Source: a virus. Taken from it: 47,463 nucleotides of DNA. Under the pieces are notes generated by a model that did no database searches, was not told where the DNA came from, and saw only the letters and a program-made list of their open reading frames with translations. Of the stretch, positions 13,142-41,272 are shown piece by piece. How positions within the stretch are numbered: position 1 is the stretch's first letter; every line of letters starts with the position of its first letter. The stretch lies in IMG/VR virus record IMGVR_UViG_3300017963_000091. One strand, written 5' to 3'. The translations under genes were made by a program, and so were the position numbers.

Positions 13142-13417
13142 CTAACTCAAAGATGCCGATTTCATGGTGCCGTCCACGTTGACGTACAACGCCTCGTTCC
13201 CGCCGTCCGTGCGTACCACCACCTGATTCTCGTCCACGCCCGCCGTCGTCGGCAGTGTGGAAAACGCCGTCAGTGTCGCCTTGCCCTGCGCCAAGTCCTC
13301 GTACACGCCCTGCGCCCATACAATCAGCGCACGGTGCAACTCCGCCAGATACCGCTGCGCCTTCGCGTCGTCGAGCTTCGGCACGGGCGGGAAGTTCGGG
13401 AAACTCGTCGTCCTCAT
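13142..13417 (-). CDS. hypothetical small structural-region protein (91 aa)
   Basis: ATG 13417..13415 overlaps the TGA of 13414..14949 (ATGA). The longer ORF-track start is inside the upstream gene. Confidence 0.55.
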   Translation of the reverse strand: MRTTSFPNFPPVPKLDDAKAQRYLAELHRALIVWAQGVYEDLAQGKATLTAFSTLPTTAGVDENQVVVRTDGGNEALYVNVDGTMKSASLS

Positions 13418-14949
13418 CGGTCTGAACCCACCGTATAGCGCACGCCCAGCCAGCGCAGCCAGAACCGCTCGCCGCTGTTGTCGTTCTTGAACCGGAGCCG
13501 CAACTGCCGCCCCACGGTGTCCACATAGAAGCTGTACCGGGCGTAGTCGCTCACAAGCGTCTGGTCGCCCGCCTCCGTCCACGTCGCGCCCAAGTCGGTC
13601 GAGTACGCCACGTCCACGCTCGCGCCCTTGGCCTCGAACATGATCTCAATAATGCGCTTGTAGTGGTTCACATAACGGTCGTCGAGCACCAAGTCCTTGG
13701 ACTCCCAGCGCGCGTCTATCGCCGTCCCGTTGTCGTCGAGCGACACCAGGTCATCCTTGAAAATGTACCCGCCGCTGTTGGCGAAGCAGCGGAAGTTGCG
13801 GCCCTCGAACCCGCCCAAGGCGTCTATCGGCTCGTGGTCCATCTCGTCAATCGTTTTGTCCGACGGCAGTTCGTCAATCGTGCCGCGTGAGCCGAGTTCC
13901 AACGCGCTCGCCGCCGTCAGGTTCTCTATCGTGTCAATCGTCCACCTGTCCTGCTGGTAGTCGTAGACATACTGCCGGTTGATTTTCCCGCCCGACTCCC
14001 CGTAAGGAACGTACAGATAGTACAAATGTTCGTCCTCGTTCAGCATGGCGAAGCACTTGGGGAAATTCGTGCGCGACACGTTCTTGAACAGGTCGTCGCG
14101 GATGCGCCCGCCCACGCCCGTCAGCGCCGTGCCGTTGAACAGGTACACGTCGTCCTGCCCCATGAAGATGTGGTCGAAGCCGAGGTCAATCACCGTGCGC
14201 GGCGCGAGCGTGCCCTTGTTCGGCACCGCCACGTCAAACCGAAACACCGCCAGCCCGCCGACGTACTGCCCGATGTAAATGCGATTCCCGCAATAGACGG
14301 CGAGCCACGCGCCTATCGGCACGCCGCACTGCGCGCCCGTCGGGTCGCCCTCCAAGTCGAAATACCCGCCGCCCGCCGACGTGTCGTACTCGTCGGTCTT
14401 GCCGAGTTCGCTCCAACGGATACGGTACGGATAGCTTGTCCCGTCCTCGTTCGTGCCGAGCAGCAGCAGCCGGTCGGCAAACGTCACCACGGCGCGGCAC
14501 AGATGGTACGTCGGCGTCTGGTAATCGTCGCCGCCCGCGAGGTCGGAGGCATTACCCGTGCCCGTCCATACCTGAACGTGGTCAACGCCGTTCGTGTAAA
14601 TCCATGTATCGTTCATCGTGCAAGCCGAGTGCCGCCCGCCGACCGTGCCGCTCAACCCCGACTTGACGGACGTGAATGTCGCGCCTGTCCACTTGTAGAG
14701 GTTGGAGAGCGTCGCCATCATCGCCGTCGTGGAACCCGCGAGCCGGTCGAAGTCGTTCAGCAGCACGGGCGTCGAGGCCATAGACGCGCTCATCAGCGTC
14801 GTGTAGCCGCGCCGCTTGAATACCTCACCGCCACGGAACCGCACATTCTGCACGCGGGGCGTCTCGTCCCCGCCAATCATCGTCGGCGGGTCTTCCTGAT
14901 TCAGCCCCGCCGCAGGCGCGGCGATCTGGAAGAACTGTGCGTTCGCCAT
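13414..14949 (-). CDS. tail tubular/nozzle-like structural protein (511 aa)
   Basis: ATG 14949..14947 overlaps the TAA of the tail-fibre gene (TAATG). The N-terminus ...NVRFRGGEVFKRRGY resembles the conserved start of podoviral tail-tubular proteins. Beta-rich repetitive sequence. Confidence 0.45.
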   Translation of the reverse strand: MANAQFFQIAAPAAGLNQEDPPTMIGGDETPRVQNVRFRGGEVFKRRGYTTLMSASMASTPVLLNDFDRLAGSTTAMMATLSNLYKWTGATFTSVKSGLSGTVGGRHSACTMNDTWIYTNGVDHVQVWTGTGNASDLAGGDDYQTPTYHLCRAVVTFADRLLLLGTNEDGTSYPYRIRWSELGKTDEYDTSAGGGYFDLEGDPTGAQCGVPIGAWLAVYCGNRIYIGQYVGGLAVFRFDVAVPNKGTLAPRTVIDLGFDHIFMGQDDVYLFNGTALTGVGGRIRDDLFKNVSRTNFPKCFAMLNEDEHLYYLYVPYGESGGKINRQYVYDYQQDRWTIDTIENLTAASALELGSRGTIDELPSDKTIDEMDHEPIDALGGFEGRNFRCFANSGGYIFKDDLVSLDDNGTAIDARWESKDLVLDDRYVNHYKRIIEIMFEAKGASVDVAYSTDLGATWTEAGDQTLVSDYARYSFYVDTVGRQLRLRFKNDNSGERFWLRWLGVRYTVGSDR

Positions 14950-15974
14950 TACCACGTTTCCGCTATGTAGGTGTAAGTAACCCCGCTGCCGTTGACGTAG
15001 GCGTGATTGCCGACGGTAAAGCCCGCCGCGTCGAGCGATATAATGAACGTCGTCAGCCAGTTGCCCGCCGCGTCCTTCGCGTAGAGGCCGTCTTGGTTAG
15101 TCTTGACTACGGGCAGGTGTCCCTGATATTGGGCGTACACGGTGACTTTCTTCGGCTGCCAACTCAGGCCGGTAATCGCGTGCGAGGCCGTGGCGTCGCC
15201 CGTGTAGGTGCCCGTCGCCACCTTGGCGAATACGCCAATGACTTGCTCGTACCGCACCGCGTCGCCGTTCTCGGTCGCTGCAGCCAACCCCGTGATTTTG
15301 CTGCTGCCCATCGCAAGGCTCCCGGCCAGCGTCAGCGTCCCGTCCACCGTGCCGCCGCCCTTCGGCAGATACGCCGGATGCCCGTCAAGGTACACCGTGT
15401 AGCTCTGGCCCGATGCCGTCGTGCCGTCGTACACGCGGTCGAGCGTGATCTGCGTGTTGCTGTCCACGCTGGAAATGACGTAGTATTCGCTGTCCGGGCC
15501 GAGCAGGATGTCATTCGCCGCGATGTTCCCGCTCCATGCCGTGCTGTTGCCTGCGACCGTCGCGCTGGCGTTCGTTACGTCTATTGTGCCCGTCGTGTAG
15601 GTCGTGACGGCGGCGGAGTGGTTCGGCGTGCCCACGGTCGTCCACGCCTCGTCCGTGTAGTTGTATTTCTTGAGCAGGCCGGTGTCGGTCTCGTAGTACA
15701 ACGCGCCGTCCTGCATACCCGCCGCCGCCGTGGACGGCTTGTTCGCGGCCAGCCCGTAGTTGCTGCGACCGGATTCCTTCCGGTGCCGCCAGAGGTTTTC
15801 TTTCCCCGTTTCGTCCGCGTGCGCGTAGTGCTCGACGTTCGCGCGCTCGCGCACGCCCTTGCGGGTGCTCTCAATCAGGTCGTCTATGTCGTCCTGATAC
15901 TGACTGCCCTGATCCGATTCGTCCCACGCATTGTCCGCACTAGTCGCTGCCGAGTCCGAGTTGCTTAGAGTCAT
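14949..15974 (-). CDS. tail fibre protein (341 aa)
   Basis: LPKGGGTVDGTLTLAGSLAMGSSKITGLAAATENGDAVRYEQV matches the widespread fibre motif (L-x-GGT-x-x-G-x-L ... I-T-x-L-A-x-x-x-x-x-x-D-A-V). Acidic N-terminus. Confidence 0.7.
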   Translation of the reverse strand: MTLSNSDSAATSADNAWDESDQGSQYQDDIDDLIESTRKGVRERANVEHYAHADETGKENLWRHRKESGRSNYGLAANKPSTAAAGMQDGALYYETDTGLLKKYNYTDEAWTTVGTPNHSAAVTTYTTGTIDVTNASATVAGNSTAWSGNIAANDILLGPDSEYYVISSVDSNTQITLDRVYDGTTASGQSYTVYLDGHPAYLPKGGGTVDGTLTLAGSLAMGSSKITGLAAATENGDAVRYEQVIGVFAKVATGTYTGDATASHAITGLSWQPKKVTVYAQYQGHLPVVKTNQDGLYAKDAAGNWLTTFIISLDAAGFTVGNHAYVNGSGVTYTYIAETW

Positions 15975-16881
15975 GTTGCTCGCCCCATACTGCCATGATG
16001 TTGTCGTCTATCTGCGCCATACGCCCCCATGCGTATGGTTGGGTCTCTTTGCCGAGCCGTGCGCCGCACCGATGACACGCCTTCGCCTGCCATGAGCCGA
16101 CAAGGTAATCCGACGTGCCGTTGTCGTGCCGCTTCGCTTCCAAGAACACCACCTGATACCAGTCCCCGTTGATGCGAACGTAACCCGAATTGTCCGTGCC
16201 GACGCAGCAGTTCGACGCCACCACGTCGGGCCGCTTGACTTTCACGGGCTTCGGCGCGGGCACGGGCGCGTCGCCCTTGGCGCACCCGTTGAACAGGAAG
16301 GCATAGTCCGCCGCCTTGCCCCAGTGTTCAATCTCTTGGAGATATTGACCGTCTTTCGGTTCGCGCATTCCCGTCAGGTTGCTGCCGTGGCGAATGTCTA
16401 CAATGGGCACAGAAGAAAAGACTTGGTTCGTTGAGTCCGGTTCGGCCCATGCTGGCCCGCCCGCACTCTGTTCCGTCTCCTGCAACTTCTTTTCAATCGC
16501 CGCCCACACCGACCCCTTATCACCGCACAGGCCACTCAACAGCGCGGTATGGCGCGGGAAAAACCCGTGTGCGTTTAGAACCATGACATTCAGGTTGTAA
16601 TAAATCTTGGCACCCCAGTCCGTTTGGAAATGTTCGGCTGGGTACAGCACGTCATCCTCGGCCAGATAAATGTCGTCTGATTGCGCCTTGCGCAACCCGT
16701 CTATGATTTTCCGATAGATGTCCTCGTGCGCCTTCTTGTACTTGCGCGGGCCAACCATCTCGACAACCTCGCCGCCCGTGGCGCGCACCGCTGAATACAA
16801 CACGCTCAGGCAGTATTCCCGCAACACGCCGCTTGCACGCTCGTCAGAGTAGTACACGACGCTGAATTTCGGTGTGCTCAT
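15940..16881 (-). CDS. GT-A-fold glycosyltransferase-like protein (313 aa)
   Basis: GGGAGGAAGAA precedes ATG 16881..16879, which overlaps the TGA of the methyltransferase gene. KFSVVYYSDE... and DDIYLAEDDVLYP (DxD-like). The ORF-track extension to 17136 lies inside the upstream gene. Confidence 0.5.
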   Translation of the reverse strand: MSTPKFSVVYYSDERASGVLREYCLSVLYSAVRATGGEVVEMVGPRKYKKAHEDIYRKIIDGLRKAQSDDIYLAEDDVLYPAEHFQTDWGAKIYYNLNVMVLNAHGFFPRHTALLSGLCGDKGSVWAAIEKKLQETEQSAGGPAWAEPDSTNQVFSSVPIVDIRHGSNLTGMREPKDGQYLQEIEHWGKAADYAFLFNGCAKGDAPVPAPKPVKVKRPDVVASNCCVGTDNSGYVRINGDWYQVVFLEAKRHDNGTSDYLVGSWQAKACHRCGARLGKETQPYAWGRMAQIDDNIMAVWGEQHDSKQLGLGSD

Positions 16882-17378
16882 TTCTTCCTCCCGACGCCCC
16901 AGCAGTCCACGCCGCAGCGCATTGGGGCTTCGTATGCCTCGACCACTTCCATGCCGCCCTGCTCCAGCAGGGCGCGCATCCCGTCCTCCAAGATACGAAA
17001 GCAGTCCAGCGGGTAGCGGTGGGTGTGGAATCGCCTCGGTGCTACGACAAACGCATACCCGCCAGACCGCAGTATCCGGCCAATCTCGCAGACAATCCGC
17101 CACGGATTCCGCGAGTGTTCCAACACCTGTCCGCACAGCACCAAGTCCGCGCTCACGTCGGGCAGGGGAATCTCCATGTCATTCTTCATCACCACGTCCA
17201 CGTTCTTGCCAGTCGTCACGTCTACGCCGATGTAGCTCCACTTGTCGTCCATCAGGTCGCGGTACGTCCCGTTCACGTCCTGTGACCCCACGTCCACAAC
17301 GGCGTACTTCTCGCCGCGCCAGTCGGTAAGGTACTTGTCCATCAGTTTCGCTATGCCGTCGTGGCTTTCCCTGTGCAT
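16878..17378 (-). CDS. class I SAM-dependent methyltransferase (166 aa)
   Basis: VVDVGSQ (motif I), DLVLCGQVLEHS and ILRSGGYAFV give a Methyltransf_11-type layout. Confidence 0.85.
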   Translation of the reverse strand: MHRESHDGIAKLMDKYLTDWRGEKYAVVDVGSQDVNGTYRDLMDDKWSYIGVDVTTGKNVDVVMKNDMEIPLPDVSADLVLCGQVLEHSRNPWRIVCEIGRILRSGGYAFVVAPRRFHTHRYPLDCFRILEDGMRALLEQGGMEVVEAYEAPMRCGVDCWGVGRKK

Positions 17379-17575
17379 CAGTTCCCCTCCTTTTTGTTAT
17401 TGGTTTCGGTTGTGATTGCTCTCCGTCGCGCGTGGAGCATTTGGCGCGCCACCGTAAACGCCCAGTCGGCAGTGGTATCCGTCCAATGTAGGCCGTTGAA
17501 CGAGGACGCCCGGCCCTGCACATACCTCATGGCCGCATCGCTCATAAACTGCTTTTCGTCATCGGTCAACATCAC
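17378..17575 (-). CDS. hypothetical small protein (65 aa)
   Basis: ORF bridging the GT2 and methyltransferase genes, overlapping both. No motif recognised. Confidence 0.5.
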   Translation of the reverse strand: MMLTDDEKQFMSDAAMRYVQGRASSFNGLHWTDTTADWAFTVARQMLHARRRAITTETNNKKEGN

Positions 17576-18548
17576 CTGTCTCCCTCCGCCAGTTCCCGCA
17601 CAATCTTAGAAACGCTTCGTCGGACAGCAGGCAGCGTTCCCGTATCCGCCTGCCGTACTCCCGTAGTTCGGCAGATTGCGACACCGCGTCAAGTACCGCA
17701 CGCGACACACCCGCGTCGGCCATGTGGCCCGCGAACATCTCATACGCCGGATTCTCGAAGAGTATCCGGTACATGGACGCCATTTGCAGGTCTTGCTGCC
17801 CTCGCGTGTTCGTGTACGGCGCGTTGCCGGGGTCGCGGAACTCGTGCGTCACGTTCACCGTGCGGGTCAGCGTGATCGGCACGCAGCACTTCGCCGCGAG
17901 GATGGACATGGCGCACTCGGAATGGCCCGTCGTGCCCGACAGCGCCAGCCAGCCGCCCATGCGTTCAAGCACGTCTTTTGGTATCGCGTAGCACGCGCCC
18001 ATCATGCCCGTCGTTCGCGCCACGTCGCCCTTGTCCGCGCCGCGCCAGTAGACTTGCAGCAGCCCCTTGTCGTTCACTTCCAGCCGCGCACCGAAATGGT
18101 TATTGCAGCCGCCGTAGGCGAAGCCCCGTGTCCGCTTGGCAACGGCGCATATCCGCGTGATGTCGTTCGTCTTGAACCGCATGTGTGCGTCGGTGAAAAA
18201 CAGCACACGTCCATGTGCGGCCAATGCCCCGATGTGTCTGCTGCCCGCGCAGCCCTGACGTGTAATGTTGTAGACCGCCGCGCCGTCCACGCGCCGTTCG
18301 CTCATGTCGTCCACGACGATGATCTCCGCGCCGGGACACGTCTCGCGGATGTTCGCCACGGTATTCGGCAAGTCCGGCTCGTTACACGCCGCGATGATGA
18401 CGGAAATGTCGCTGGCGAGCATCTTGGACTTACACTGGCCGCATCGCTTCGATTCAGCCACGCGCTCCATTGCCAGCAAGCGTTCTCTAAGCGTTGTGCC
18501 CAACAACTGCCCCGTTCTACTCGACCGCCACTCGCTCCATGCGTCCAC
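17559..18548 (-). CDS. family-2-type (GT-A) glycosyltransferase with a D-x-H motif (329 aa)
   Basis: ISVIIAACNEPD ... EIIVVDDMSE ... FFTDAHMRF. This is the classical GT2 N-terminal signature, with DAH at the metal-binding position. Confidence 0.8.
   Translation of the reverse strand: MDAWSEWRSSRTGQLLGTTLRERLLAMERVAESKRCGQCKSKMLASDISVIIAACNEPDLPNTVANIRETCPGAEIIVVDDMSERRVDGAAVYNITRQGCAGSRHIGALAAHGRVLFFTDAHMRFKTNDITRICAVAKRTRGFAYGGCNNHFGARLEVNDKGLLQVYWRGADKGDVARTTGMMGACYAIPKDVLERMGGWLALSGTTGHSECAMSILAAKCCVPITLTRTVNVTHEFRDPGNAPYTNTRGQQDLQMASMYRILFENPAYEMFAGHMADAGVSRAVLDAVSQSAELREYGRRIRERCLLSDEAFLRLCGNWRRETGDVDR
17667..17679 (-). repeat. conserved 13-mer GCAATCTGCCGAA, exact copy 4 of 4
   Basis: Plus-strand ttcggcagattgc. 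It lies inside the 3' part of the GT2 gene (encoding QSAE), about 90 nt upstream of the start of 17378..17575. Confidence 0.9.
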
Positions 18549-19257
18549 GATGCACGACCAGAAAATGATTCACCTTCTCGCCCTCGCGCCGGTCATGGCG
18601 CAACAGGCCATTCCCGCCCCCACCCGTAATCGCTTGCGCATACCGCCCCATTTCCATTGTGAGGAAGTAATGCCAATACCCGCTGAATACGATGTCCACG
18701 CCGCCTACGGAAACGACCGCCTCGATGTCCGGTTGCCCCGGAAGCGTTCGGTCAGACGCCGGAATCTCCGGCAACGGCTTGTGCGTGAACAGGTATCGCC
18801 TGTCGCACGGCACGGCTAGTTCGGCCCGCAACCAGTCGAGCATCGCGGCCCGCTCCGCGCCCGCGAGTTCTGTATTCAGCACAACGTATCGCGTGCCACC
18901 GTCGGCCAGCACGTCGTAGTCGCGCCCGTATCGCCCGCGCCAGAATTCCAACGCGCCCGGTTCGTCAACATCGTGATTCCCGCATACCACATGAACCGGC
19001 ATGTCCAGCCCGGACACAAGCGTATCGAATCGCGCCCAGCCCTCACGCCAACGCGGCCCATGCACCACGTCGCCCACGACGAACAACCTGTCCGCGCCCG
19101 TCGCGTTGATTGCGTCCACCCACGACTCGTCGAAGTCCGACACGGGCAAGTGCAAATCGCCCACGACGGCGAATGATGGCGTCGTGCCGTGCGCCGCCCA
19201 TAGAATCGGGACGGCCAGCACAGCCGCGCAAATAATAGCTAACGCCAGTCGCTTCAT
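18517..19257 (-). CDS. secreted metallophosphoesterase (246 aa)
   Basis: Signal-peptide-like N-terminus MKRLALAIICAAVLAVPILWAAHG, then the GDLHLP, VVGDVVHG and VCGNHD motifs. Confidence 0.8.
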   Translation of the reverse strand: MKRLALAIICAAVLAVPILWAAHGTTPSFAVVGDLHLPVSDFDESWVDAINATGADRLFVVGDVVHGPRWREGWARFDTLVSGLDMPVHVVCGNHDVDEPGALEFWRGRYGRDYDVLADGGTRYVVLNTELAGAERAAMLDWLRAELAVPCDRRYLFTHKPLPEIPASDRTLPGQPDIEAVVSVGGVDIVFSGYWHYFLTMEMGRYAQAITGGGGNGLLRHDRREGEKVNHFLVVHRGRMERVAVE

Positions 19258-19681: not shown

Positions 19682-20095
19682 CTATTTCTCCAATCCCGCA
19701 AAGAAGATTTCCTCGCACTTCGCCGCCACGTCGGCGGTAAGGTGCCCGTCACCAACCAATCGCGTCAACTCGTCGCGGATGCCGTCCTGTGTGTCGGGAA
19801 TTGTCCCGTTGAACGCCTTCAGCAGTTCAACAGACGCCGACGCCGCCCGTTCAATGGCCGCTTGGCGTTGTTCCTCCGCACTGGCCGGAACGTCTACGGG
19901 GACAACTCCTTTCCATTTCCCAAGCGGACAATTCGATTCTGGCCCATTCAGGAATTCGTACTCGATAGCCACGCGAAACGCTTTTCCGTTCGCCTCGCAG
20001 TGTGGCCACTTGTCTTTGTATCCCGGCCTAGCTACGCACTCGAAGCACGCTTCACAACGCCGGTGTCGTCCCCAGCCCAACGGTGTCAGTCCCAT
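19682..20095 (-). CDS. hypothetical Cys-rich protein (137 aa)
   Basis: AAGGGTGAG precedes the ATG. The N-terminus has CEACFEC ... PHCE ... NCP. Confidence 0.6.
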   Translation of the reverse strand: MGLTPLGWGRHRRCEACFECVARPGYKDKWPHCEANGKAFRVAIEYEFLNGPESNCPLGKWKGVVPVDVPASAEEQRQAAIERAASASVELLKAFNGTIPDTQDGIRDELTRLVGDGHLTADVAAKCEEIFFAGLEK

Positions 20096-20105
20096 GTCTC
20101 ACCCT

Positions 20106-20789
20106 TTATGAATAAACCGTCTGTGTTGCGGGAAACGTTTCACTACCGCCGCCGCCCAGACACGCGCTGTCGAATTTCGTGTAGAGGCCGTCCGGACAAT
20201 CGCCGTCGCCCGTAGGCGTGCGTTTGTAGTCGGCCTGACCGTGCGGGTCCGGCCCGCCGTTCGTGTAGAAGTAGAGCGGAATCACCCAATAGCCGTCCGC
20301 GCATTTCAGGCGGTCCGTCAGTCCCGCGCGATAGTCGCCGCTTGCCACGGTTGACCCCGTCCACTCGCACTTCGGCCCCGGCGGGAAACCGCCCGTGTAC
20401 TGCGTCAGCGTCATAATGGACCCGGCACCGAACGGCCCGACGCCACACGCGCCCTGATCGCTCACGTCTAAGTAGTAGGTGGATTCGCATCCGGTGCAAT
20501 TGTCGGTCGGGCATGTGCCCGGCGCTGGCGTGGTCGTTGTCGTCGTTGTGGTAGTAGTCGTAGTTGTGGTCGTTGTCGTCGTAGTGGTCGTCGTAGTTGT
20601 TGTGGTCGTCGTAGTCGTTGTGGTTGTCGTGGTCGTGGTAGTCGTTGTCGTTGTCGTAGTGGTCGTGGTGGTAGTCGTCGTTGTGGTAGTGGTTGTCGTG
20701 GTGGTTGTAGTCGTCGTCGTCGTGGTGGTTGTAGTCGTCGTGGTAGTGGTCGTGGTTGTGGTCGTTGCCGTCTTGAGGCAGGGGAACAT
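20106..20789 (-). CDS. poly-threonine (79xThr) protein with a Cys-rich C-terminal domain (227 aa)
   Basis: MFPCLKTA, then 79 consecutive Thr, then a 140-aa domain with 8 Cys (CPTDNCTGC ... KCEW ... KCADGYW ... DCPDG ... ACLGG). The ATG overlaps the TAA of the upstream fibre-like gene (TAATG). Confidence 0.75.
   Translation of the reverse strand: MFPCLKTATTTTTTTTTTTTTTTTTTTTTTTTTTTTTTTTTTTTTTTTTTTTTTTTTTTTTTTTTTTTTTTTTTTTTTTTTTTTTTTPAPGTCPTDNCTGCESTYYLDVSDQGACGVGPFGAGSIMTLTQYTGGFPPGPKCEWTGSTVASGDYRAGLTDRLKCADGYWVIPLYFYTNGGPDPHGQADYKRTPTGDGDCPDGLYTKFDSACLGGGGSETFPATQTVYS
20529..20765 (-). repeat. 237-nt (ACN)79 tract encoding poly-Thr
   Basis: The plus strand is an unbroken run of NGT triplets (ggt/cgt/tgt/agt in irregular order). 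All four Thr codons are used, so this is not a perfect microsatellite. Confidence 0.95.
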
Positions 20790-21370
20790 TAGTCTTGGCT
20801 CACCGTTCGCTTGAGGACTGCCACTACGGTCAACTCTTCCGCCCCGGTGCCCGCGTCATCTACCACGCACTTCAAGAGGTCGTTCGCGCTCAACGCGGTG
20901 GTGCCCAGCACTGCCGGTGTCGCCGCACTCACGCTGCTGCGCTCGGTCGCGTCTATGGTCAACTTCGTGCTGAACACGGTCGCCCACGTCGTCCCGTTAT
21001 CGCCCGATTTCTGCACGTCTATGGTGATCGCGCCGCTGGTCGAGGCCGTCGCCACGGTCGCATGTATCCGGTCAATCGTTGCCGCCGGGTACACCAGCGG
21101 CCAGTATTGCAGGGTGCGGGCCGTAACGGTGCCGAGCGTCCATGCCGCGCTTTCGTAAACGGTATGGGTGTGGGTTGACGCGGAACTCCCCACGTCGTCA
21201 TTGTCTACGTCGTGCGGGTTGTCGGTGTCCTCGACGTGCTGTTCCAGCGCGTCAAGCCGCGTGTCTATGTGCTCGTGCGTCGTGTTCAGGCTGCTCGTCG
21301 TCAGGCGTGCGGCGGCGGCAAGCGCGTACAGCGTGTCGTAATAGTTCGCCACTATCCCGTCTCCGTCCAT
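20789..21370 (-). CDS. tail-fibre-like protein (193 aa from ATG 21370; GTG 21400 also possible)
   Basis: DTDNPHDV (an NPH motif common in fibre proteins) and a Thr/Ala-rich beta-type C-terminal domain. No clear SD for either start. Confidence 0.55.
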   Translation of the reverse strand: MDGDGIVANYYDTLYALAAAARLTTSSLNTTHEHIDTRLDALEQHVEDTDNPHDVDNDDVGSSASTHTHTVYESAAWTLGTVTARTLQYWPLVYPAATIDRIHATVATASTSGAITIDVQKSGDNGTTWATVFSTKLTIDATERSSVSAATPAVLGTTALSANDLLKCVVDDAGTGAEELTVVAVLKRTVSQD

Positions 21371-21546
21371 GTCGTGTCGGGGTCGCTTCGCGCCGTCCAC
21401 GTCGTGCCCGGCTCGTCGTATTTCCGCTTCGTCATGGTCGCGTCGTCATAGTCGGTCACGCCGGATACCGTCGCGGCGTCATCGTCCACGATCTCGAAGT
21501 CCAACTCCGTCCCGGCGCGCGCCGTATAGGTCAAATCAGTTGTCAT
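21352..21546 (-). CDS. small acidic Thr/Asp-rich protein (64 aa)
   Basis: ATG 21546..21544 overlaps the TGA of the adaptor-like gene (TGATG). MTTDLTYTARAGTELDFEIVDDDAATVSGVTDYDD... Confidence 0.45.
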   Translation of the reverse strand: MTTDLTYTARAGTELDFEIVDDDAATVSGVTDYDDATMTKRKYDEPGTTWTARSDPDTTWTETG

Positions 21547-22202
21547 CAACCGTACTCCGGTTTCAGCCAGTAACTACCCGGATGCCGGGTGCTCTCCCCG
21601 AACTGCGGTCGCCAGCCGGGCCGCGACCTGTCCTGAACAATCGCCTCCTTCAAGTCGCGTCGCCACTCGCTCGTCCACCACGCCGCCCGGTCGAATTCGC
21701 CAAGACTCGCGTACAGCCGCGCCGTCGCGTGCTCAATCAGCACATGATCTATCTGGTCAATGTCCGGCGTGTCGTCGTCGTTCGACAAGTCGTCCGGCCA
21801 CTTGACATAGTTGATATACACGGTGTAATCATCGTCCGGCTTCGCGGGCAGTTCCCAGTAATTCCCGTCGCGTGCGAAGCACCACGGCTTCTCCGTGTCC
21901 GCGTCGTCCGGGTTCGGCTCGCGCTCCATCAGCCAGCGTTTGTCGCGCTCCTCAAGCCACTCGCTCTCCGTCCCGCTTATCAGCCGGATGCCGATGAGCG
22001 TTTTCATGTCGGACGGGAACGAATAGCGAAAATCATCCTCGTCCAGCGTGGACTCGAATTCCCGGTAGAGATCGAGCCAGTCGTGGCGCGTGGCGACAAT
22101 GCGCAGCGCGTCGTTCAGCAGCGAGAGAATCAGGGTGTCCTTGTCGTTGCGCCCCGTGTTGTCGGTCACGCGGTCAACGAGTTCAGCTTTCGTCAGAGCC
22201 AT
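21546..22202 (-). CDS. head-tail adaptor / tail-tubular-A-like protein (218 aa)
   Basis: The N-terminal pattern MALTKAELVDRVTDNTGRNDKDTLILSLLNDALRIVA... is typical of adaptor-type proteins. Size is similar to T7 gp11, and it lies in the structural operon. Confidence 0.45.
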   Translation of the reverse strand: MALTKAELVDRVTDNTGRNDKDTLILSLLNDALRIVATRHDWLDLYREFESTLDEDDFRYSFPSDMKTLIGIRLISGTESEWLEERDKRWLMEREPNPDDADTEKPWCFARDGNYWELPAKPDDDYTVYINYVKWPDDLSNDDDTPDIDQIDHVLIEHATARLYASLGEFDRAAWWTSEWRRDLKEAIVQDRSRPGWRPQFGESTRHPGSYWLKPEYG

Positions 22203-22211: not shown

Positions 22212-23234
22212 CTAGAGAAATTCGACATGCGGCGGCGGGTTGTGCTTCATGTTCCACAGGATACGGTTGAACGGGTCGCACCGGCACAGCGGCACACAAT
22301 CGCGGAAGTCTATGCTGTCAATCACGTCCCGCCGACGGTCGCCGTACCAGATGTTCTCAAGCGAGTTCTCGTGGATGTTGCCGAGCGCGTACTTCTCCTT
22401 GCCCCGCATGTGGCAGCAGAGCCATACCGTACCGTCCGCGCCGACGACCGTGGCGAACGCCTGCCCGTAGCACTTGCCGTAGGGCCGACCCGTGTTCCCC
22501 ATGTTGCGGAACTTGTTCTCGCTCCACACCACGGCGTAGTCCTTGCGCGTGTACCCCAACGACCGGCAATACGCCGACTCAATCGCGGGCAGCAGCTTTG
22601 GCTTGTCGAGCGTCTCGTGGAACGGCCTGAATTGCAGATAGTCCACGCCGAGCATGGCGCAGAGCGACGCGCATTTCTCCATCTCGTTTATCGTGTGCGC
22701 GCCGACAAGGAAGCCGACGCCGATAGTCGTTTCCGCGCCGCGCTCGCGCTTCGCCTCGGCCAAGACCCGGATGTTCGTTATCACCCGCTCAAAGTTCTTC
22801 GTCCCGTGTGTCTTGGCATACAACCCCGCCGTCGCGGCGTCGAGCGATACCCGTATCCACGTCGCCCGGAACAGGTCGCCGTATAGTTCCGGGTTCAGCA
22901 GCACCCCGTTCGTAATCAGGCCGACACCCAACCCCGCGTCCACGGCGTACCGCATCGTCGCGGGCGCGGACGTGTGGCATAGCGGCTCCCCGCCGCCCGT
23001 GAATATCAACCCCCTCACCCCCAGTTCCACTGCCTCGTCTATCACGCGCCGCGCCGCGTCCGTTTCGAGCGACGCGGTGGACTTGTACCGCCCGCCCGCG
23101 CAACACGGGCAGTTGTCCGTGCAGCGGTTCGTCATGTCCAGTTCCATCGTGATCGGCGTACCGTCGCCCGCCCGCTTCCATTCCGCCACCCTGTCAGGAT
23201 GGAAGTGCAGCTTGCTTCCGCTGATTGGATTCAT
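22212..23234 (-). CDS. radical SAM enzyme with a Cys-rich SPASM/twitch-like C-terminal region (340 aa)
   Basis: CTDNCPCC (CX3CX2C), GLIFTGGGEPL, and C-terminal Cys clusters CYGQAF...LCCHMRG...CVPLCRC. ATG 23234..23232 is preceded by GGGGAG. Confidence 0.85.
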   Translation of the reverse strand: MNPISGSKLHFHPDRVAEWKRAGDGTPITMELDMTNRCTDNCPCCAGGRYKSTASLETDAARRVIDEAVELGVRGLIFTGGGEPLCHTSAPATMRYAVDAGLGVGLITNGVLLNPELYGDLFRATWIRVSLDAATAGLYAKTHGTKNFERVITNIRVLAEAKRERGAETTIGVGFLVGAHTINEMEKCASLCAMLGVDYLQFRPFHETLDKPKLLPAIESAYCRSLGYTRKDYAVVWSENKFRNMGNTGRPYGKCYGQAFATVVGADGTVWLCCHMRGKEKYALGNIHENSLENIWYGDRRRDVIDSIDFRDCVPLCRCDPFNRILWNMKHNPPPHVEFL

Positions 23235-23403
23235 TTCTCCCCATGTCGTGTACCACGGTAACCGCGCAAAGAATCGCTGCCGCCGTGGCAATGCCCGCGA
23301 AAAGCCCCAAAGCCAGATTGCCCGTCAACCGAAACGCGGTGTAGTTATGACTCGCAACTATCGTCGCTACGACCGTCAGCCCCGTCAGCACCTTGCGCGC
23401 CAT
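23194..23403 (-). CDS. small two-TM membrane protein (69 aa), doubtful
   Basis: MARKVLTGLTVVATIVA...LALGLFAGIATAAAILCAVTVV. It overlaps both neighbours, by 59 and 41 nt. Confidence 0.35.
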   Translation of the reverse strand: MARKVLTGLTVVATIVASHNYTAFRLTGNLALGLFAGIATAAAILCAVTVVHDMGRNESNQRKQAALPS

Positions 23404-24052
23404 CTGTCCTGATGAACCCCATATGCGCCCCCGTTCTCTCCCAAACATCCCGCTCGAAGTATGCCAATACCCCGCTGTTCACCAACCTGTCCGCCGACTC
23501 CTGATAGCCCTTGTGCTTCCAGTCATGTACGATGACGTAGCCGCCCACCGGCACGTCGGGCGCAAACGTCTCCAAGTCCGGCGGGCCGATGTCAAGGTAC
23601 AACATGACGCGCTCCCCGCATCCGTCCGGGTCGGCGGCACGCGGTATCTGACTGACTACCCACCGCCGCCGGTCGCCGTCGTAAACGTCTATCCCGCCAT
23701 ACGCATCGCCCCACAATGGCAAGGCTTTCCGAATGTCATGACCAACATTGCCCGCGTCGCAGGCGAACACGACCGGCTGGCAACTCGGCGGCGAACAGTA
23801 ACGCGCCCGCTTCACGGGCACGCGATTGAGTTGCGCATACATTGCCAAGTACACCGCCTGCACGCCGTCCCCGCAGCCGAGTTCCAGAATGTACGTCGGC
23901 CTGACTGTGCGCAGAAACGCCTCGATCTGCCGCAAGTCGTCCCAGCCCTTCACCACCTGCCGCCCGAACAGGCTCTTGAACTCATATGCGGGCAATGCCA
24001 TCGCAGCCGCGAAGTCGTCAGGGAATGGATAGGTCTTCGTGCCGACGGTCAT
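23345..24052 (-). CDS. class I methyltransferase-fold protein (235 aa)
   Basis: YILELGCGDGVQAVYLA (motif I) and GGYVIVHDW. The ATG overlaps the TGA of the upstream methyltransferase gene (ATGA). Confidence 0.6.
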   Translation of the reverse strand: MTVGTKTYPFPDDFAAAMALPAYEFKSLFGRQVVKGWDDLRQIEAFLRTVRPTYILELGCGDGVQAVYLAMYAQLNRVPVKRARYCSPPSCQPVVFACDAGNVGHDIRKALPLWGDAYGGIDVYDGDRRRWVVSQIPRAADPDGCGERVMLYLDIGPPDLETFAPDVPVGGYVIVHDWKHKGYQESADRLVNSGVLAYFERDVWERTGAHMGFIRTDGAQGADGADGRSDDSCES

Positions 24053-24621
24053 TTTTCCCCCTCCATCGGTCTTCGATACGCGCCGACGACGCCGATTGAC
24101 CCAATGTGCCGGAACTCCGACTTCGGCACGTTGTCGTCAATGGCCTTCTGTACCGCCGGGCAGTTCACGTCATGGAGCGCGAGTATCCCGCCCGGTGGGA
24201 TATGCTTCGACCACGCCACAATGTCAGCCGACGCCGCTTCGTAAGTATGTGAGGCGTCTATGAACACCATCGCCACGCGCCCGTAAGCCCATGACCTGCC
24301 CGCGTCCGCGCTGTCGCCCGTCAGGATTCGCACACAGTCGGTCAGGTCAGCCAGAGCCAATGCCTTCGTCGCCATCTCCTCGCTGCCGCTCTTTTGTGTA
24401 CTCGGCACTGTGCCCCAGATGTCATAGCCAAAGAGCGTCGCGCCCGTGTCCCGGCACGCCGCGCCCAACGCGCACGCGCTGCGCCCGCGATAGACGCCGA
24501 GTTCCACGACATGCTTGCAGCCCGTGTCAAGCACCGCGCTCGTCGCCAGCGCGTAAAGCAGCGCGCCGTCGGCGGGCGTCATCAACCCCTCAGTGCGCTT
24601 GAATCGCTCGTACCAGTGCAT
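24049..24621 (-). CDS. class I SAM-dependent methyltransferase, Methyltransf_24/TylF-like (190 aa)
   Basis: VVELGVYRGRSACAL, FIDASHTYEAASADI and GGILALHD. ATG 24621..24619 overlaps the TGA of the GT2 gene (TGATG). Confidence 0.8.
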   Translation of the reverse strand: MHWYERFKRTEGLMTPADGALLYALATSAVLDTGCKHVVELGVYRGRSACALGAACRDTGATLFGYDIWGTVPSTQKSGSEEMATKALALADLTDCVRILTGDSADAGRSWAYGRVAMVFIDASHTYEAASADIVAWSKHIPPGGILALHDVNCPAVQKAIDDNVPKSEFRHIGSIGVVGAYRRPMEGEK

Positions 24622-26066
24622 CACACATATCCCTCTGCGTTGTAGTAATGCTTCGTTCTGACGCCCCAGTGTGCCATGAGGCGGTTGCCTCTGTCCCGAA
24701 CGTGTCGCCACAGCCCGAAGTCCTGTCCAAGCCAGTTCCCGATCTCGCCAACGGGGTACTTGAAGTTCTGCAACACTTCCTTGCGTATCAGCACAAACCC
24801 GACGCCTGACGCGCCTATCGGGGTGCATCCGTCGCTCGGCGGGCGCGGCAGGTCGCCGGGGAATCGCTCTATCGGCTTCAATCCGACCGACCCGTCTTTC
24901 CGATGCTGCCATTCCATCGCCAGAAGCCGATTGTTGTCCACGATAGGCCGCGAGTAGTACACGCCCGTCACGGCGTCCACGTTCGGAGCCATGCCCTCGA
25001 ACAGCCGCCGCGCCGCGTTCGGCTCATACGGCTCGTTGTCGTCCTCGATGCTCAGGATGAACGGCGTCGAAAAATGCGGCGTCGCTCGCGACCACATCTC
25101 GGCCATGCGCTCCGGCATGACCATGCACCTGTTGTGCAGGTTCGTGTACGAGACCCGCGTGTCGTCTTTCTGGTAAATCGTGTTCCGCGCCTTGCAGTTC
25201 GCAAGATACTCCCGCAGCATCTTTCCGCGTTCAGCGTCGTTCGTGTTGTCGTAGAAGAACAGGGTCGTCCTGTCCCAGTCCAGTCCAAGGTTCTCCAGCA
25301 TGTCGAAGAACCGCCGCCCGGTAATCGGCCTGCCCGGCCCGAACGGGGTGAACACGGTGATCGGTCTACGCCGCAGCACTTCCTGATACCACGGCATCCG
25401 GTTCTGGAAACTCGCCGTCAGGCTCCCCGCGTGCGTCCGATGCTCGTAGTTGATATTGGCATACGCCGCCCACCACCCGTGTTCCAATATCCGCAGCCAC
25501 AACTCCCAGTCCTGAAACACGGGCAGATTGCCCCAGCCGCCGACACTCTCAATCGCGCGCCGCCGCACCATGCTCTGGCCCGCGATGTAGTTCTCGCGGT
25601 ACACGCTCGGCCTGTTCTTGCCGCAGCCCTGACTCTCGTACAGGCCGAAACTCGTGTGCATGGGATAGACAAGGCCGATGCGCCGTTCGGTGAATCGGTC
25701 ATGCAACGCCTTGAGATAGCCTTTCGGCAGCACGTCGTCGGCGTCCATGAACACAATGAACTTGGATTTCGTCATGCACAGGCCGCGCTGGCGCAGGGCG
25801 CAAATGTTCCGTTCCACAGGCCCGACCACGGCCACCTTCACCCCCGACGCACGCGCCACCGCCACGCTGTCGTCCTCGCTGGCATTGTCCATGTAGACAA
25901 TCTCGCGTGCGCCGGGGGTCTGCCGCTGCACGCTCTCTATGGCGTCTTTCAGGTATTGCCCGTAGTTCCGGCCCGATATGATGACCGCAACGGGCAGCCG
26001 CTCCTTGCTCTGCGCCAAGTCCGGTATCATAAACTCGCGGAATCGCTTGATGATGTCCAGGGTCAT
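24621..26066 (-). CDS. two-domain glycosyltransferase, N-terminal GT2 (481 aa)
   Basis: VAVIISGRNYGQYLKDAIESVQRQT...EIVYMDNASEDDS...FVFMDADDVLP gives the GT2 signature and DxD. The second half has another GT-A-like block (...FFYDNTNDAE...FILSIEDDNEP). Confidence 0.85.
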   Translation of the reverse strand: MTLDIIKRFREFMIPDLAQSKERLPVAVIISGRNYGQYLKDAIESVQRQTPGAREIVYMDNASEDDSVAVARASGVKVAVVGPVERNICALRQRGLCMTKSKFIVFMDADDVLPKGYLKALHDRFTERRIGLVYPMHTSFGLYESQGCGKNRPSVYRENYIAGQSMVRRRAIESVGGWGNLPVFQDWELWLRILEHGWWAAYANINYEHRTHAGSLTASFQNRMPWYQEVLRRRPITVFTPFGPGRPITGRRFFDMLENLGLDWDRTTLFFYDNTNDAERGKMLREYLANCKARNTIYQKDDTRVSYTNLHNRCMVMPERMAEMWSRATPHFSTPFILSIEDDNEPYEPNAARRLFEGMAPNVDAVTGVYYSRPIVDNNRLLAMEWQHRKDGSVGLKPIERFPGDLPRPPSDGCTPIGASGVGFVLIRKEVLQNFKYPVGEIGNWLGQDFGLWRHVRDRGNRLMAHWGVRTKHYYNAEGYV

Positions 26067-27328
26067 TTGAATGCCTTCGGGAACTCCGCCTTCAAAATGG
26101 TCATAATGGCGTCATACTCCACGCCCTCGATCTTCGCGTCCTTCGCGTGCCGGTTCATCTGCGCGTAGTCGCTCGGCACCAGGTCTTTCCCCAGCGTCTC
26201 ATGCAGCTTGCACCCCGGATACGGCGTCAGGAACGCGGGGCTGTAGTAGTCCACGTCGCAGTCCTTGACGAGCCGCACGGTCTGCATCGTCTCGCTCGGC
26301 GTCTCGCCGGGGATGCCGTGTATGATGTTTCCGACTATCCGGCAGCCCAGCCGCTTGAGCGTCCGGCACGCCTCGTAGTTCTGCTCGACGGTCGTGCCCT
26401 TCTCCAAGTAGTCCAAGTGCCGCTGGCACCCGCTTTCCAGCCCGACGTTCACCGTGTCGAGGCCGATACCGCGCAATGCCTCGAACATGGCGGGCCGCTT
26501 CACGATGATGTCGGCGCGACACGCGACGTTGAACGGGATACCGCCGCACACCTTCGGATACTCGCGTATGAATTCCTCGACCCATTTCCGCCTGAGCGTG
26601 AACAGGTCGTCTATGAACTCGATGTAGGCGGGGTGGTACTGTCGCGTCAGGTGCTTGAGTTCCATCATCACATGCGCGACGCTGCGTATCCGCACTTTCG
26701 GCCCGAACACCGTGTCGCTCACGGGATAGCAGAACGCGCATTTGTGCGGGCACCCGCGCCCGACCATGACGGTCACGAACGGATAGGCGCTGTGCCATTG
26801 CCCGCCGTGGTAGAGTTCCCCGCCGCGATAGTCTATGAGTTCCCGGTCTATGGGAAGAAGCGCGTCGAGGTCGGGCGGTTCCCCGGCCACCACGCGCTCG
26901 TACCCGACAAAATAGTCCCTGAGCATGTCGCACAGCGTCCACTCCCCTTCGCCTGTCAGGATGTAGTCAATCTGCGCCTTCTTCTCCGCGTCTTCCGGCT
27001 TGATGCTGACATGCACGCCGCCCATCACGGTCGTCACATGCCGCGCCTTCTCTTTCAGCCGCTTCAGATAGTCGCACGCGACGGGGAAGTCCACGGTCAT
27101 CGCGCCGACGCCGACGAATTCCGGGTCGCGCAACAGCGTGTCGTTCACCGCGTCTTCAATACACTTATGCCGCCGCAAGTCCACGATGGTAACGTGGTGC
27201 CCGTTGCGGTTCGCTTCGGTCGCCACGGATAGAAGCCCGTGCGGGAGGGAGTTGTGCCTTCTTCCCTCCCGCGCGTAGCAGTTCCAACCGTGCATCGTTA
27301 CGTTCGGCACTACCAACACGCCCTTCAT
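26063..27328 (-). CDS. B12-binding-domain radical SAM enzyme (421 aa)
   Basis: A Rossmann-like cobalamin-binding N-domain (HHVTIVDL...FVGVGAMT...VMGGVHVS...ILTGEGE) is followed by VGRGCPHKCAFC (CX3CX2C). This is the class-B radical SAM layout. Confidence 0.9.
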   Translation of the reverse strand: MKGVLVVPNVTMHGWNCYAREGRRHNSLPHGLLSVATEANRNGHHVTIVDLRRHKCIEDAVNDTLLRDPEFVGVGAMTVDFPVACDYLKRLKEKARHVTTVMGGVHVSIKPEDAEKKAQIDYILTGEGEWTLCDMLRDYFVGYERVVAGEPPDLDALLPIDRELIDYRGGELYHGGQWHSAYPFVTVMVGRGCPHKCAFCYPVSDTVFGPKVRIRSVAHVMMELKHLTRQYHPAYIEFIDDLFTLRRKWVEEFIREYPKVCGGIPFNVACRADIIVKRPAMFEALRGIGLDTVNVGLESGCQRHLDYLEKGTTVEQNYEACRTLKRLGCRIVGNIIHGIPGETPSETMQTVRLVKDCDVDYYSPAFLTPYPGCKLHETLGKDLVPSDYAQMNRHAKDAKIEGVEYDAIMTILKAEFPKAFK

Positions 27329-29687: not shown

Positions 29688-30356
29688 CTATGTCGCGCCG
29701 GGGTATCCCCCCTGCGCCTGTAGTTCCCTGAAAGTATCCAGCGCGGCATCACCGAGACTCGTGTACTCCTTGTCGGCATTTGCCCCAGCCGAGTTCGGTT
29801 TCTCAGAGGCCGCGCGCTTGGCACTCTCTGCCTTCGCGGGATCGGGCTTCTTCTCAGGCGTCGGCGGTGTCGCGGCCTTGGGCCGCTTCGCACGCGCCAG
29901 CGCCATCAAATCTTCGTCCGCTAACGTCGGATACTTCTTTGCGAGCTTCAACACGTCCGATTCGATCTCCTTCCAGTCCGGCACTTCCTTTGCATACTTG
30001 TCGCACAATTTCTGCTGCGCGCTCTGCTTGATCTGGTACTGCACCATCGAAGTGACCTTCTTCAGTTCCGCTTGCAGAGCCTTGATTTGCGCATCACGCG
30101 GGTCAGCTTCCTCGCCCGCTTGCTGTTCTTGTGTTTCGTCACCCCCAAACCACTGTTTGTACAGCGTGTCGAGTTCTTCGCTATCCGCCGACTCCGACGA
30201 GTTCGCCTTCTCCGTCTCCAACGCCTCCACCTTCGCTTGCAGGGCCTTCAACTGTTCCGCCGCTGTCGGCTCCTGTGTCTCCGTCGTCTGCGTCTCCTGC
30301 GTCGCTTCCGTCGTCTGCGTCTGCTCCGTCGTCTCCGTCGCTTCCTGTTCCGGCAT
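29688..30356 (-). CDS. scaffolding protein candidate (222 aa)
   Basis: Very acidic T/E/Q-rich N-terminus and a helical heptad-like middle, directly upstream of the MCP. AAGGGG lies 7 nt before the ATG. Confidence 0.65.
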   Translation of the reverse strand: MPEQEATETTEQTQTTEATQETQTTETQEPTAAEQLKALQAKVEALETEKANSSESADSEELDTLYKQWFGGDETQEQQAGEEADPRDAQIKALQAELKKVTSMVQYQIKQSAQQKLCDKYAKEVPDWKEIESDVLKLAKKYPTLADEDLMALARAKRPKAATPPTPEKKPDPAKAESAKRAASEKPNSAGANADKEYTSLGDAALDTFRELQAQGGYPGAT

Positions 30357-40897: not shown

Positions 40898-41272
40898 CTA
40901 TCCCTCCAAAAGTTCGCGCTTCCCGCGTGCCCACTTGACACACACAAGCGGCGCGGCGGGATGGTGTGTATTGAACAACTGCCGCTTCAGCTTGAAGTCC
41001 CGCGTCAACATGCCCTTTACGTCAATGTATTCGGGCCACAGGCTCGACCCCAGTTCTTCTTCGACCTCGTTATGCCACACGCAGAAGTCCAGCGTCCACC
41101 GGATGTGCCCCGGCAGCGTCACCGTAGGATGCACGTCAATGTGCAGCACGTCGCCGTCCTGCTCCATCTTGAGCATGTGCAGGTACGCGCATTCGCGGGC
41201 CTCCATCTTGGAATCGTGCGTGCGCCCGCAATGCGGGCAGTTGCGCACCCTTACGGCTCGGTACTTGTTCAC
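40898..41272 (-). CDS. DUF1064-like (PD-(D/E)XK-type) nuclease candidate (124 aa)
   Basis: NKYRAVRV ... HDSKMEARECAYLHMLKMEQDGDVL ... WTLDFCVW ... EYIDVKGMLTRDFKLKRQLF follows the DUF1064 pattern (NKY.A.K...FDS..E...L......G.I..L.....F.L ... DF.V ... D.KG..T..F..K..L). The GTG start overlaps the upstream TGA. Confidence 0.7.
   Translation of the reverse strand: MNKYRAVRVRNCPHCGRTHDSKMEARECAYLHMLKMEQDGDVLHIDVHPTVTLPGHIRWTLDFCVWHNEVEEELGSSLWPEYIDVKGMLTRDFKLKRQLFNTHHPAAPLVCVKWARGKRELLEG

Follow-up and report, generated by a model that had tools for sequence, protein, structure and literature searches.

What does an uninterrupted run of 79 threonines do in a protein encoded among the tail genes of a virus? 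The question is raised by IMG/VR record IMGVR_UViG_3300017963_000091, a stretch of 47,463 nucleotides that was analysed at its full length and is referred to here as the window. Its minus strand carries an open reading frame (ORF) of 227 amino acids (aa) in which this run precedes a Cys-rich C-terminal domain (C-domain). We consider it reasonably likely that the window encodes a self-contained phage module for mucin-type O-glycosylation that includes its own acceptor, most likely on the tail or neck of the virion. A sequence-only reading of the same DNA had already put forward the Thr run as a mucin-type acceptor, and this idea now appears much stronger, given a conserved nearby glycosyltransferase (GT) resembling polypeptide GalNAc-transferases (ppGalNAc-Ts) and a pairing of such genes that recurs in unrelated viral contigs. 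The ORF is made up as follows.

20106..20789, minus strand: poly-Thr/Cys-rich ORF, 227 aa, documented by sequence, codon counts, GC content at third codon positions (GC3), homologues, an AlphaFold2 model and an independent contig
20766-20789, minus strand: N-terminus of the poly-Thr ORF, 8 aa, MFPCLKTA
20529..20765, minus strand: Thr tract, exactly 79 codons, mixed ACN
20109-20528, minus strand: C-terminal domain, 140 aa, 8 Cys, predicted all-beta
20106-20108, minus strand: stop codon of the poly-Thr ORF

This layout, which had first been described from the letters alone, is borne out by translation (MFPCLKTA, 79 Thr, then 140 aa with 8 Cys), and the TAATG coupling reported with it can be seen in the sequence, where the ATG of the poly-Thr ORF overlaps the TAA of an upstream 203-aa ORF. 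A frameshift fusion with that upstream gene was considered, the poly-Thr frame lying at +1, and was rejected, as no slippery or shift-prone site precedes the TAA. Thr makes up 5.8% of all other proteins of the window, in which the next longest homopolymer run is 4 residues, and the 79-Thr tract is thus not a product of chance. The ORF at 20106-20789 has the long Thr/Ser-rich region, selected for composition, that is expected of a mucin-like protein, and it is the sole mucin-like acceptor segment in the window. No signal peptide was seen in its sequence, and no phage tRNA gene that might supply the Thr run was found in the window. The second most Ser/Thr-rich segment of the window is a T/E/Q-rich repeat (PEQEATETTEQTQTTEATQETQTTETQEPT) in a 222-aa ORF at 29688-30356 (minus strand), which occupies a scaffold-like place directly before the major head gene and has tandem repeats at 30256-30340.

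Selection on the tract acts at the protein level, as had been suggested from its irregular mixture of codons. All first and second codon positions are fixed (158/158), while the third positions are nearly random, with an entropy of 1.92 of 2 bits (ACG 30, ACC 21, ACA 15 and ACT 13). This usage is flatter than that of the other Thr codons in the genome (chi-square p=2e-5), and codon order is scrambled, repeats of a codon at lags 1-5 being rarer than in shuffled tracts (P=8e-5). Tandem Repeats Finder reports a weak, degenerate period of 36 nucleotides (nt; 6.3 copies, 80% match). The pattern is the opposite of a slippage-made microsatellite, and the earlier claim that the tract is not a perfect slippage-prone repeat holds. 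Because the longest exact repeat inside the tract is only 23 nt, it can be assembled from short reads. An independent ENA contig of 37 kb, ERZ27256783 k141_1588057, matches 20,912 bp of the window at 100.000% identity, all 79 codons included, and in 3 contig records the ORF product runs across the tract at equal length. Within the C-domain, GC3 is 0.76 in the Thr frame versus 0.57 and 0.60 in the other two.

Public gene calls give a different picture of the same DNA, in which the poly-Thr ORF is replaced by an ORF on the opposite strand together with a 102-aa C-terminal fragment (20106-20414, minus strand).

20494..20814, plus strand: antisense poly-Val ORF, 106 aa, from the public gene calls (ENA record), judged spurious

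The same miscalled pair is present at locus L004 (7657-7977 and 8057-8365). The exact 227-aa product is not on public record, because gene callers chose the poly-Val ORF and the 102-aa fragment. Gene callers probably overlook such homopolymeric ORFs systematically, and the proteins are hence lacking from protein databases.

Judged by its relatives, the C-domain is a rare new small domain family of about 10 homologues whose fold class is unassigned. When 1.84 billion representative proteins were searched exhaustively with HMMER (E up to 0.001), 12 matches were obtained, 8 of which were accepted as true homologues and used for alignment; P0013, a relative with a tandem half-domain that came from a later profile search, completed a 9-sequence alignment. 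The eight Cys are conserved in this alignment, and C54, W56, C76, W81, C111 and G114 are invariant. From the 9 sequences, AlphaFold2 predicts an all-beta C-domain of ten strands (predicted local distance difference test, pLDDT, 89.3; predicted template-modelling score, pTM, 0.84), and from the single sequence it yields no usable model (pLDDT 31.6). Foldseek comparison of the model with PDB and BFVD gave nothing significant (best E 0.24-0.27, TM <=0.42). An 8-stranded up-and-down barrel as in streptavidin and hemophilin showed a weak likeness (TM 0.38-0.42), and no fold assignment was made. The C-domain has no match in Pfam, PHROG or NCBIfam, none by tblastn against 50,697 GenBank phage records and none in a word-index protein search.

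What varies among these proteins is the segment in front of the domain. The homologues have spacers that are T/G/D/E-rich (P0001, P0008), SR-rich or SG-rich (P0004) or VTR-rich (P0005); each is 31-47% Ser+Thr and they are otherwise very unlike one another, while the spacer of the window is 100% Thr. Most homologues also have an N-terminal domain of ~50 aa. The closest relative, P0001 on locus L003, is 86% identical in the C-domain, and DNA homology between the window and L003 (73% identity) runs from 20532 down to 19701, starting at the border of tract and domain and continuing through the next gene. The poly-Thr run is therefore this lineage's own version of the spacer, and alignment of the family indicates a C-domain that is a conserved module behind a replaceable Ser/Thr-rich segment. 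The acidic spacers of relatives had raised the idea of a haloarchaeal or halophilic host, which was rejected because the window proteome is not acidic (median isoelectric point 6.1).

A candidate for the enzyme that would act on the tract is encoded downstream.

17559..18548, minus strand: GT-A glycosyltransferase, GT27-like, 329 aa (Pfam Glycos_transf_2)

With phmmer against PDB, this enzyme matches polypeptide GalNAc-transferases only (E 2.4e-4). A profile built from three GT sequences gives GalNAc-Ts as all of the top 15 PDB sequences (1.2e-16 to 1e-8; next class 8.5e-6), with matches across the whole catalytic domain to GalNAc-T12, T1 and T4 (~1e-16) and to T2, T9, T10 and T7. As an internal control, the other GT2 of the window (24621-26066) matches different families in PDB. 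Across nine viral homologues of the GT (23-28% identity), the Asn of (H)NE, DxH, a Trp, WG..E and a downstream His are invariant; D87-x-H89, G175..E178 and H202 of the window enzyme align to FLDxH, WGGENLE and GHVF of GalNAc-T12, T4 and T2. We take these residues to be the metal-binding and Gal/GalNAc-T motifs of GT27. By these comparisons the enzyme is similar to a GT27 catalytic domain and is not a canonical member of that family, and we propose it as the putative initiating O-glycosyltransferase. Homopolymeric Ser/Thr stretches are typical targets of ppGalNAc-Ts (PMC3417536, PMC5225312). In tblastn searches of the 50,697 GenBank phage records with three GT27-like enzymes no match was found, and among 185,579 species genomes there was one weak relative, in a Gracilibacteria metagenome-assembled genome (MAG).

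The acceptor and enzyme genes lie in a run of minus-strand genes whose order is terminase, SU10/P22-type portal, major head protein, a block of modification enzymes and an SU10-type adaptor; then a 65-aa ORF, the 203-aa ORF, the poly-Thr ORF, a 137-aa ORF and a 72-aa ORF; and finally a metallophosphoesterase, the GT2 gene for the GT27-like enzyme, a Methyltransf_11 gene, a 313-aa ORF and tail fibre and structural proteins. The tail-region context described earlier thus stands, with the poly-Thr gene after the adaptor and before the fibre genes. The genes flanking the poly-Thr ORF are these.

21546..22202, minus strand: head-to-tail adaptor, SU10_adaptor (Pfam PF24175, E 6e-16), start of the tail module
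20789..21400, minus strand: 203-aa ORF with a single Cys, a possible partner or anchor of the poly-Thr protein (weak PHROG tail matches)
19682..20095, minus strand: 137-aa protein with four invariant Cys (C14, C17, C33, C56), conserved partner downstream of the Cys-domain gene
18517-19257, minus strand: calcineurin-like metallophosphoesterase between the 137-aa and GT27-like genes, with a hydrophobic, signal-peptide-like N-terminus (MKRLALAIICAAVLAVPILWAAHG)
16878-17378, minus strand: Methyltransf_11 methyltransferase (Pfam E 1.6e-10)
15940-16881, minus strand: 313-aa protein, family unassigned
13414-15974: tail fibre and structural genes

Part of this arrangement is kept elsewhere. The order Cys-domain protein, 137-aa homologue, GT2 homologue recurs in L002 and L003, where the homologue of the 137-aa protein directly follows the Cys-domain gene (E 3e-13 in L002; 64% identity in L003). 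L002 is a phage with a tape-measure protein, and its Cys-domain gene lies past the gene for that protein. The GT of L003 is part of a fusion with Methyltransf_24/CmcI and TOD1_MUCI70 domains, and its gene precedes a Methyltransf_11 gene and another GT2; the fused Methyltransf_24 and CmcI parts, as well as Methyltransf_11 and the second GT2, correspond to separate genes in the window. Methyltransf_11 follows the GT27-like gene in L007 as well as in L003. The 137-aa protein has no match in Pfam, NCBIfam or PDB. The 313-aa protein has no database matches, and it resembles neither a PDB chain nor the TOD1_MUCI70 domain of L007. The Methyltransf_11 and 313-aa genes (15940..17378), downstream of the GT27-like gene, may be candidates for glycan tailoring. 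The metallophosphoesterase at 18517-19257 is absent from the corresponding position in L002 and L003, and the window has a second metallophosphoesterase at 3800-4621.

The upstream 203-aa gene had been called fibre-like. Weak PHROG matches to tail proteins agree with that description, which found no further support, and the protein has no similarity to the 220/228-aa tail-region protein of L002/L003. In those two loci a module of ~50 aa (consensus ~V.IRLT..Q...L....F.YL.FP......GL.VY.SG.LPT) occurs three times in a row (L002 3376-4993; L003 78-1837): one copy ends the 220/228-aa protein, one forms a 62/63-aa ORF by itself and one opens the spacer/Cys-domain protein. The module may serve in docking or hetero-oligomerization.

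Upstream of the adaptor gene, and after that of the major capsid protein, lies the block of modification enzymes, which one would not usually expect within a structural module.

26063-27328, minus strand: B12-binding radical SAM enzyme
24621-26066, minus strand: GT2 (Pfam)
24049-24912, minus strand: Methyltransf_24
23345-24052, minus strand: CmcI-like methyltransferase
22212-23291, minus strand: radical SAM/SPASM enzyme

The enzymes of this block (22212..27328) may extend or methylate the glycan. Of the three same-strand glycosyltransferases originally counted, two have Pfam support (17559-18548 and 24621-26066) and the third does not.

The sequence-only reading had pointed to phage proteins with runs of more than 30 Thr beside GT genes as worth a search. 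A scan of IMG/VR for (ACN)x30 found at least 118 stretches, many of which are pure microsatellites or lie in MAGs of giant viruses; among the matches listed, a Cys-rich C-terminus (at least 6 Cys in the 160 aa that follow the tract) was seen in 20 of 121 Thr-frame ORFs. The architecture, earlier considered undescribed, appears to be so in the literature searched, and these counts mean that it is not unique. Four further kinds of poly-Thr protein adjoin GT27-like enzymes. In L082, a protein with 77 Thr and a Cys-rich C-terminus is followed directly by a GT27-like gene. L077/L067 has a 42-Thr ORF beside a GT27-like gene, and L039 encodes an FN3-like domain, 22 + 48 Thr and a 225-aa domain, with a GT27-like enzyme as the next gene. 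The fourth, L123+L011 (IMGVR_UViG_3300024262_006261), has a 192-codon stop-to-stop frame with a 19-aa N-terminus, 101 mixed-codon Thr, a run longer than that of the window, and a 71-aa C-terminus with six Cys; its GT27-like gene is two genes downstream and its GC content is ~36-39%. The L039 and L077 enzymes match only or almost only ppGalNAc-Ts (E 1.9e-21 and 7e-8). Viruses in which the pairing recurs range from 30 to 61% GC. With three GT queries, and with E-values normalized to equal database size, 4 locus kinds were found in 1.07 Mb around viral (ACN)x30 stretches and none in 2.3 Gb of GenBank phages, a comparison that had no matched control.

The pairing was also found in the reverse direction. 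When IMG/VR was searched with the GT, two loci were recovered (L129 and L130), and both have a Ser/Thr-rich, Cys-rich protein directly upstream. The L129 protein has a linker of PT/ST type. The L130 protein joins its spacer and Cys domain to a homologue of the L002/L003 220/228-aa protein, which is encoded downstream of the tape-measure gene in L002. The Cys-rich domains behind the other poly-Thr runs show no detectable homology to the C-domain of the window: that of L097 gives no more than a suggestive hhalign match to it (52% probability, E 1.4e-4), and that of L123 gives none. In L104, L102, L037, L105 and L070, another Cys-rich module (~C..(.)C.W.W....W.L....C...C.C) alternates with poly-Thr linkers in a bead-like manner, a pattern that may be likened to the alternation of PTS and Cys domains in mucins.

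In the mechanism that we propose, the 79-Thr run would be a dedicated acceptor that the GT27-like enzyme (17559-18548) loads with sugars in the host cytoplasm, and other phage glycosyltransferases and methyltransferases would extend and O-methylate these sugars. The product would be a stiff, hydrophilic bottle-brush of ~20 nm, up to ~28 nm if extended, on an 8-Cys beta domain; mucins measure ~0.25 nm per residue, the basis of this length. Placed on the tail or neck, such a glycoprotein would form an adhesive or shielding glycan appendage. Display on the virion tail is most likely, on account of the position of the gene and the architecture of homologues, in particular the L130 fusion. Dense O-glycosylation of the tract is inferred from the gene neighbourhood only. 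The action of the GT on the tract, the identity of the sugar, the presence of the protein in virions and its biological role (adhesion, shielding or spacing) are likewise inferences.

The geometry may differ from the one first imagined, in which the run would hold the Cys-rich head off from an anchor. No anchor was found in the protein, the N-terminus is 8 aa long, and the N-terminal domain of the homologues, searched for across the window, is absent from it. The 101-Thr protein has the same topology, with almost no N-terminus. Since both proteins are built in this way, attachment may be through the folded C-domain, in which case the Thr run would be a free brush or tentacle rather than a stalk that holds a head.

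Several observations weigh against the proposed module. The enzyme at 17559-18548 lacks a ricin-type (CBM13) lectin domain, Pfam recognizing Glycos_transf_2 only, and its N-terminus shows no hydrophobic stretch that could be a type II membrane anchor. Three ORFs (137-aa, 72-aa and metallophosphoesterase) part the GT27-like gene from the poly-Thr gene. The protein would be made in the cytoplasm, where its 8 Cys may form disulfides or bind metal. The comparison of IMG/VR stretches with GenBank phages had no matched control. L007 carries GT27-like, TOD1_MUCI70 and Methyltransf_11 parts beside fibre-like genes and has no obvious mucin-like ORF. Finally, no virion-attachment domain is recognizable in the window protein, which makes the case for display weaker than for its homologues; compared with a tail fibre, the gene lies in the tail module, and the protein has neither an N-terminal attachment domain nor a known fibre fold.

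The L007 cassette leads to the strongest of the alternatives, that the Thr run is an unglycosylated flexible spacer and that the GTs modify capsid or fibre proteins or the glycans of the host envelope, as in superinfection exclusion. The great variety of homologue spacers (TG/DE-, SR- and VTR-rich) would suit this explanation, as if only length and disorder counted. We nevertheless regard it as unlikely: however varied, each of these spacers is 31-47% Ser+Thr and that of the window is 100% Thr; in structural terms the enzyme is closest to peptide O-GalNAc transferases and not to polysaccharide synthases; and the enzyme is paired with four other kinds of poly-Thr protein as well as with the proteins of both loci from the reverse search. 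Moreover, unmodified poly-Thr is poorly soluble and prone to beta-aggregation.

The enzyme block suggests a different chemistry, in which the Cys domain or the Thr run would be the substrate of radical SAM enzymes and would receive cross-links or C-methylation (for example, Cys-Thr thioethers) as in ribosomally synthesized and post-translationally modified peptides, alone or along with glycosylation. Two radical SAM genes, one of the SPASM kind (22212-23291) and one of the B12 kind (26063-27328), share one operon-like block, the weak best NCBIfam matches of their products include the peptide and cofactor maturases PqqE, MftC, StsB and ApyD, and the protein is rich in Cys and Thr. Against this, both enzymes score far below the NCBIfam family cut-offs, and no radical SAM gene is visible in L002, L003, L129 or L130 despite the conserved Cys-domain/GT module. 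Sactipeptide and ranthipeptide precursors are short, consist of a leader and a Cys-rich core and lie beside a conserved rSAM/SPASM maturase, an arrangement that was not found here; the C-domain is a confidently folded 140-aa beta unit and not a short core peptide. Such enzyme classes also modify sugars. We consider this explanation quite improbable.

It is also conceivable that the protein is glycosylated and yet not part of the virion, being released on lysis or acting in or on the host, as a decoy, as a factor that interacts with matrix or biofilm or as a sink for host nucleotide sugars. The missing attachment domain and a predicted secreted metallophosphoesterase between the genes of the module would be in keeping with such roles, which are hardly probable given that the structural module encloses the gene, that translation is coupled to that of a neighbour with weak matches to tail proteins, that the ORF lacks a signal peptide, and that the L130 protein is fused to a homologue of the L002 protein encoded just past the tape-measure gene. 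Very improbable is the remaining explanation, that the poly-Thr ORF is not expressed as such (being an assembly artefact, antisense poly-Val or a non-coding repeat before a 102-aa gene), for although the public gene calls take that form, GTN is also four-fold degenerate, so that two fixed bases and one free base suit plus-strand Val equally, and the 237-nt tract exceeds a typical short read, the Thr frame joins the first start codon, which overlaps the upstream stop, to the conserved domain, homology to relatives sets in directly past the tract, the relatives have a translated spacer in the same place and on the same strand, window genes are nearly all on the minus strand, the internal repeats are short and the independent contig is identical, and similar ORFs are found in other viruses.

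The rest of the window is in part recognizable. It is 61% GC, has nearly every gene on the minus strand and constitutes a whole contig whose first and last 36 nt are identical, an overlap that suggests that the window of ~47.4 kb is probably a complete circular assembly. Near the contig end, at 47195-47366, a 33-bp unit is repeated 5.2 times with 89% identity. A 1335-aa protein at 7221-11228 (minus strand) has a weak PHROG match to an N4-type virion RNA polymerase (E 1.7e-6) and may be an internal or ejected virion protein. Genes at 41269-42327 and 45786-46733, in the replication/recombination arm and also on the minus strand, encode a DUF5131 protein (E 7e-49) and a recombinase of the Rad52/22 family (E 2e-18). 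A megablast search with 20 kb of the window against GenBank phages gave no match.

Taken beyond this window, the recurring pairs raise the tentative possibility of a widespread, undescribed mucin-type system of tailed phages and other uncultivated viruses, in which GT27-like enzymes would act on homopolymeric-Thr acceptors with Cys modules on virions, missed so far by gene callers, and in which the enzymes may be kin to, or even the source of, eukaryotic ppGalNAc-Ts. No phage GT27-like enzyme or phage poly-Thr glycoprotein is described in the literature searched, the coverage of which is incomplete. Mucin-type O-glycosylation started by ppGalNAc-T-like enzymes counts as a feature of animals and a few protists, and the ppGalNAc-T family is otherwise regarded as eukaryote-specific; glycosylation of phage virion proteins has so far been described mainly in mycobacteriophages. 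If the proposal is true, the phage would carry a compact mucin-making unit, transferable into other hosts, which bears on how phages stick to, hide from and move through glycan-rich surroundings, as well as on the evolutionary history of GT27, and which could provide a possible minimal bacterial system for producing mucin-like glycoproteins in biotechnology. The public gene calls also expose a blind spot of annotation, in that antisense poly-Val calls keep poly-Thr proteins out of protein databases.

The closest known systems include the GT27 mucin systems of animals and apicomplexans (for example, Toxoplasma CST1). The phage enzyme shares with them DxH, WG..E and the second metal-binding His, its best matches of solved structure are GalNAc-T1, T2, T4, T10 and T12, and the proposed acceptor is homopolymeric Thr, a typical target; as in mucins, Cys-rich modules flank Thr-rich regions. 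It differs in having no ricin-type lectin domain, membrane anchor or Golgi, in its low identity to GT27 enzymes and in the fusion of relatives to Methyltransf_24/CmcI and TOD1_MUCI70, and it would work in a bacterial cytoplasm.

Phage-encoded glycosylation of virions is reported for Che8 and its relatives (Freeman et al. 2023, as cited in PMC11256854 and PMC12582341), where, according to these citing accounts, phage-encoded GTs and methyltransferases modify the phage's own structural proteins in the host and give a glycan coat. In those phages the targets are capsid proteins and not a dedicated homopolymeric acceptor. Furthermore, the C-domain and the GT27-like enzymes of the present system have no sequence similarity to any GenBank phage. 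The targets of mycobacteriophage glycosylation also include the tail tube.

Ser/Thr-rich disordered regions are glycosylated in streptococci (PMC12041528), and the serine-rich-repeat adhesins of Gram-positive bacteria (PMC12041528) similarly combine long Ser/Thr stalks and dedicated O-glycosylation with a folded domain or brush. The SR/SG-rich spacer of the homologue P0004 is also reminiscent of them. Unlike the phage protein, these adhesins are cellular and depend on GT4 enzymes, as in the GtfA/GtfB glycosylation systems, or on membrane-bound GT-C enzymes, and on accessory Sec export, which is absent here. The Pro/Thr linkers of cellulases and other modular glycoside hydrolases are O-glycosylated, 20-50 aa long, mixed in composition and modified by the host. 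They resemble the phage protein in placing a Thr-rich spacer between folded modules, and the linker of L129 is a classic PT/ST one; the run in the window, in contrast, is 79 pure Thr with a virus-encoded enzyme. Chloroviruses and giant viruses glycosylate their own structural proteins with their own enzymes, independently of the host secretory pathway, and are thus similar in carrying both glycosyltransferases and tailoring enzymes. They are, on the other hand, eukaryotic viruses whose capsid or fibril proteins carry N-linked or fibril glycans, and we know of no account of a GT27-like/poly-Thr pair in them.

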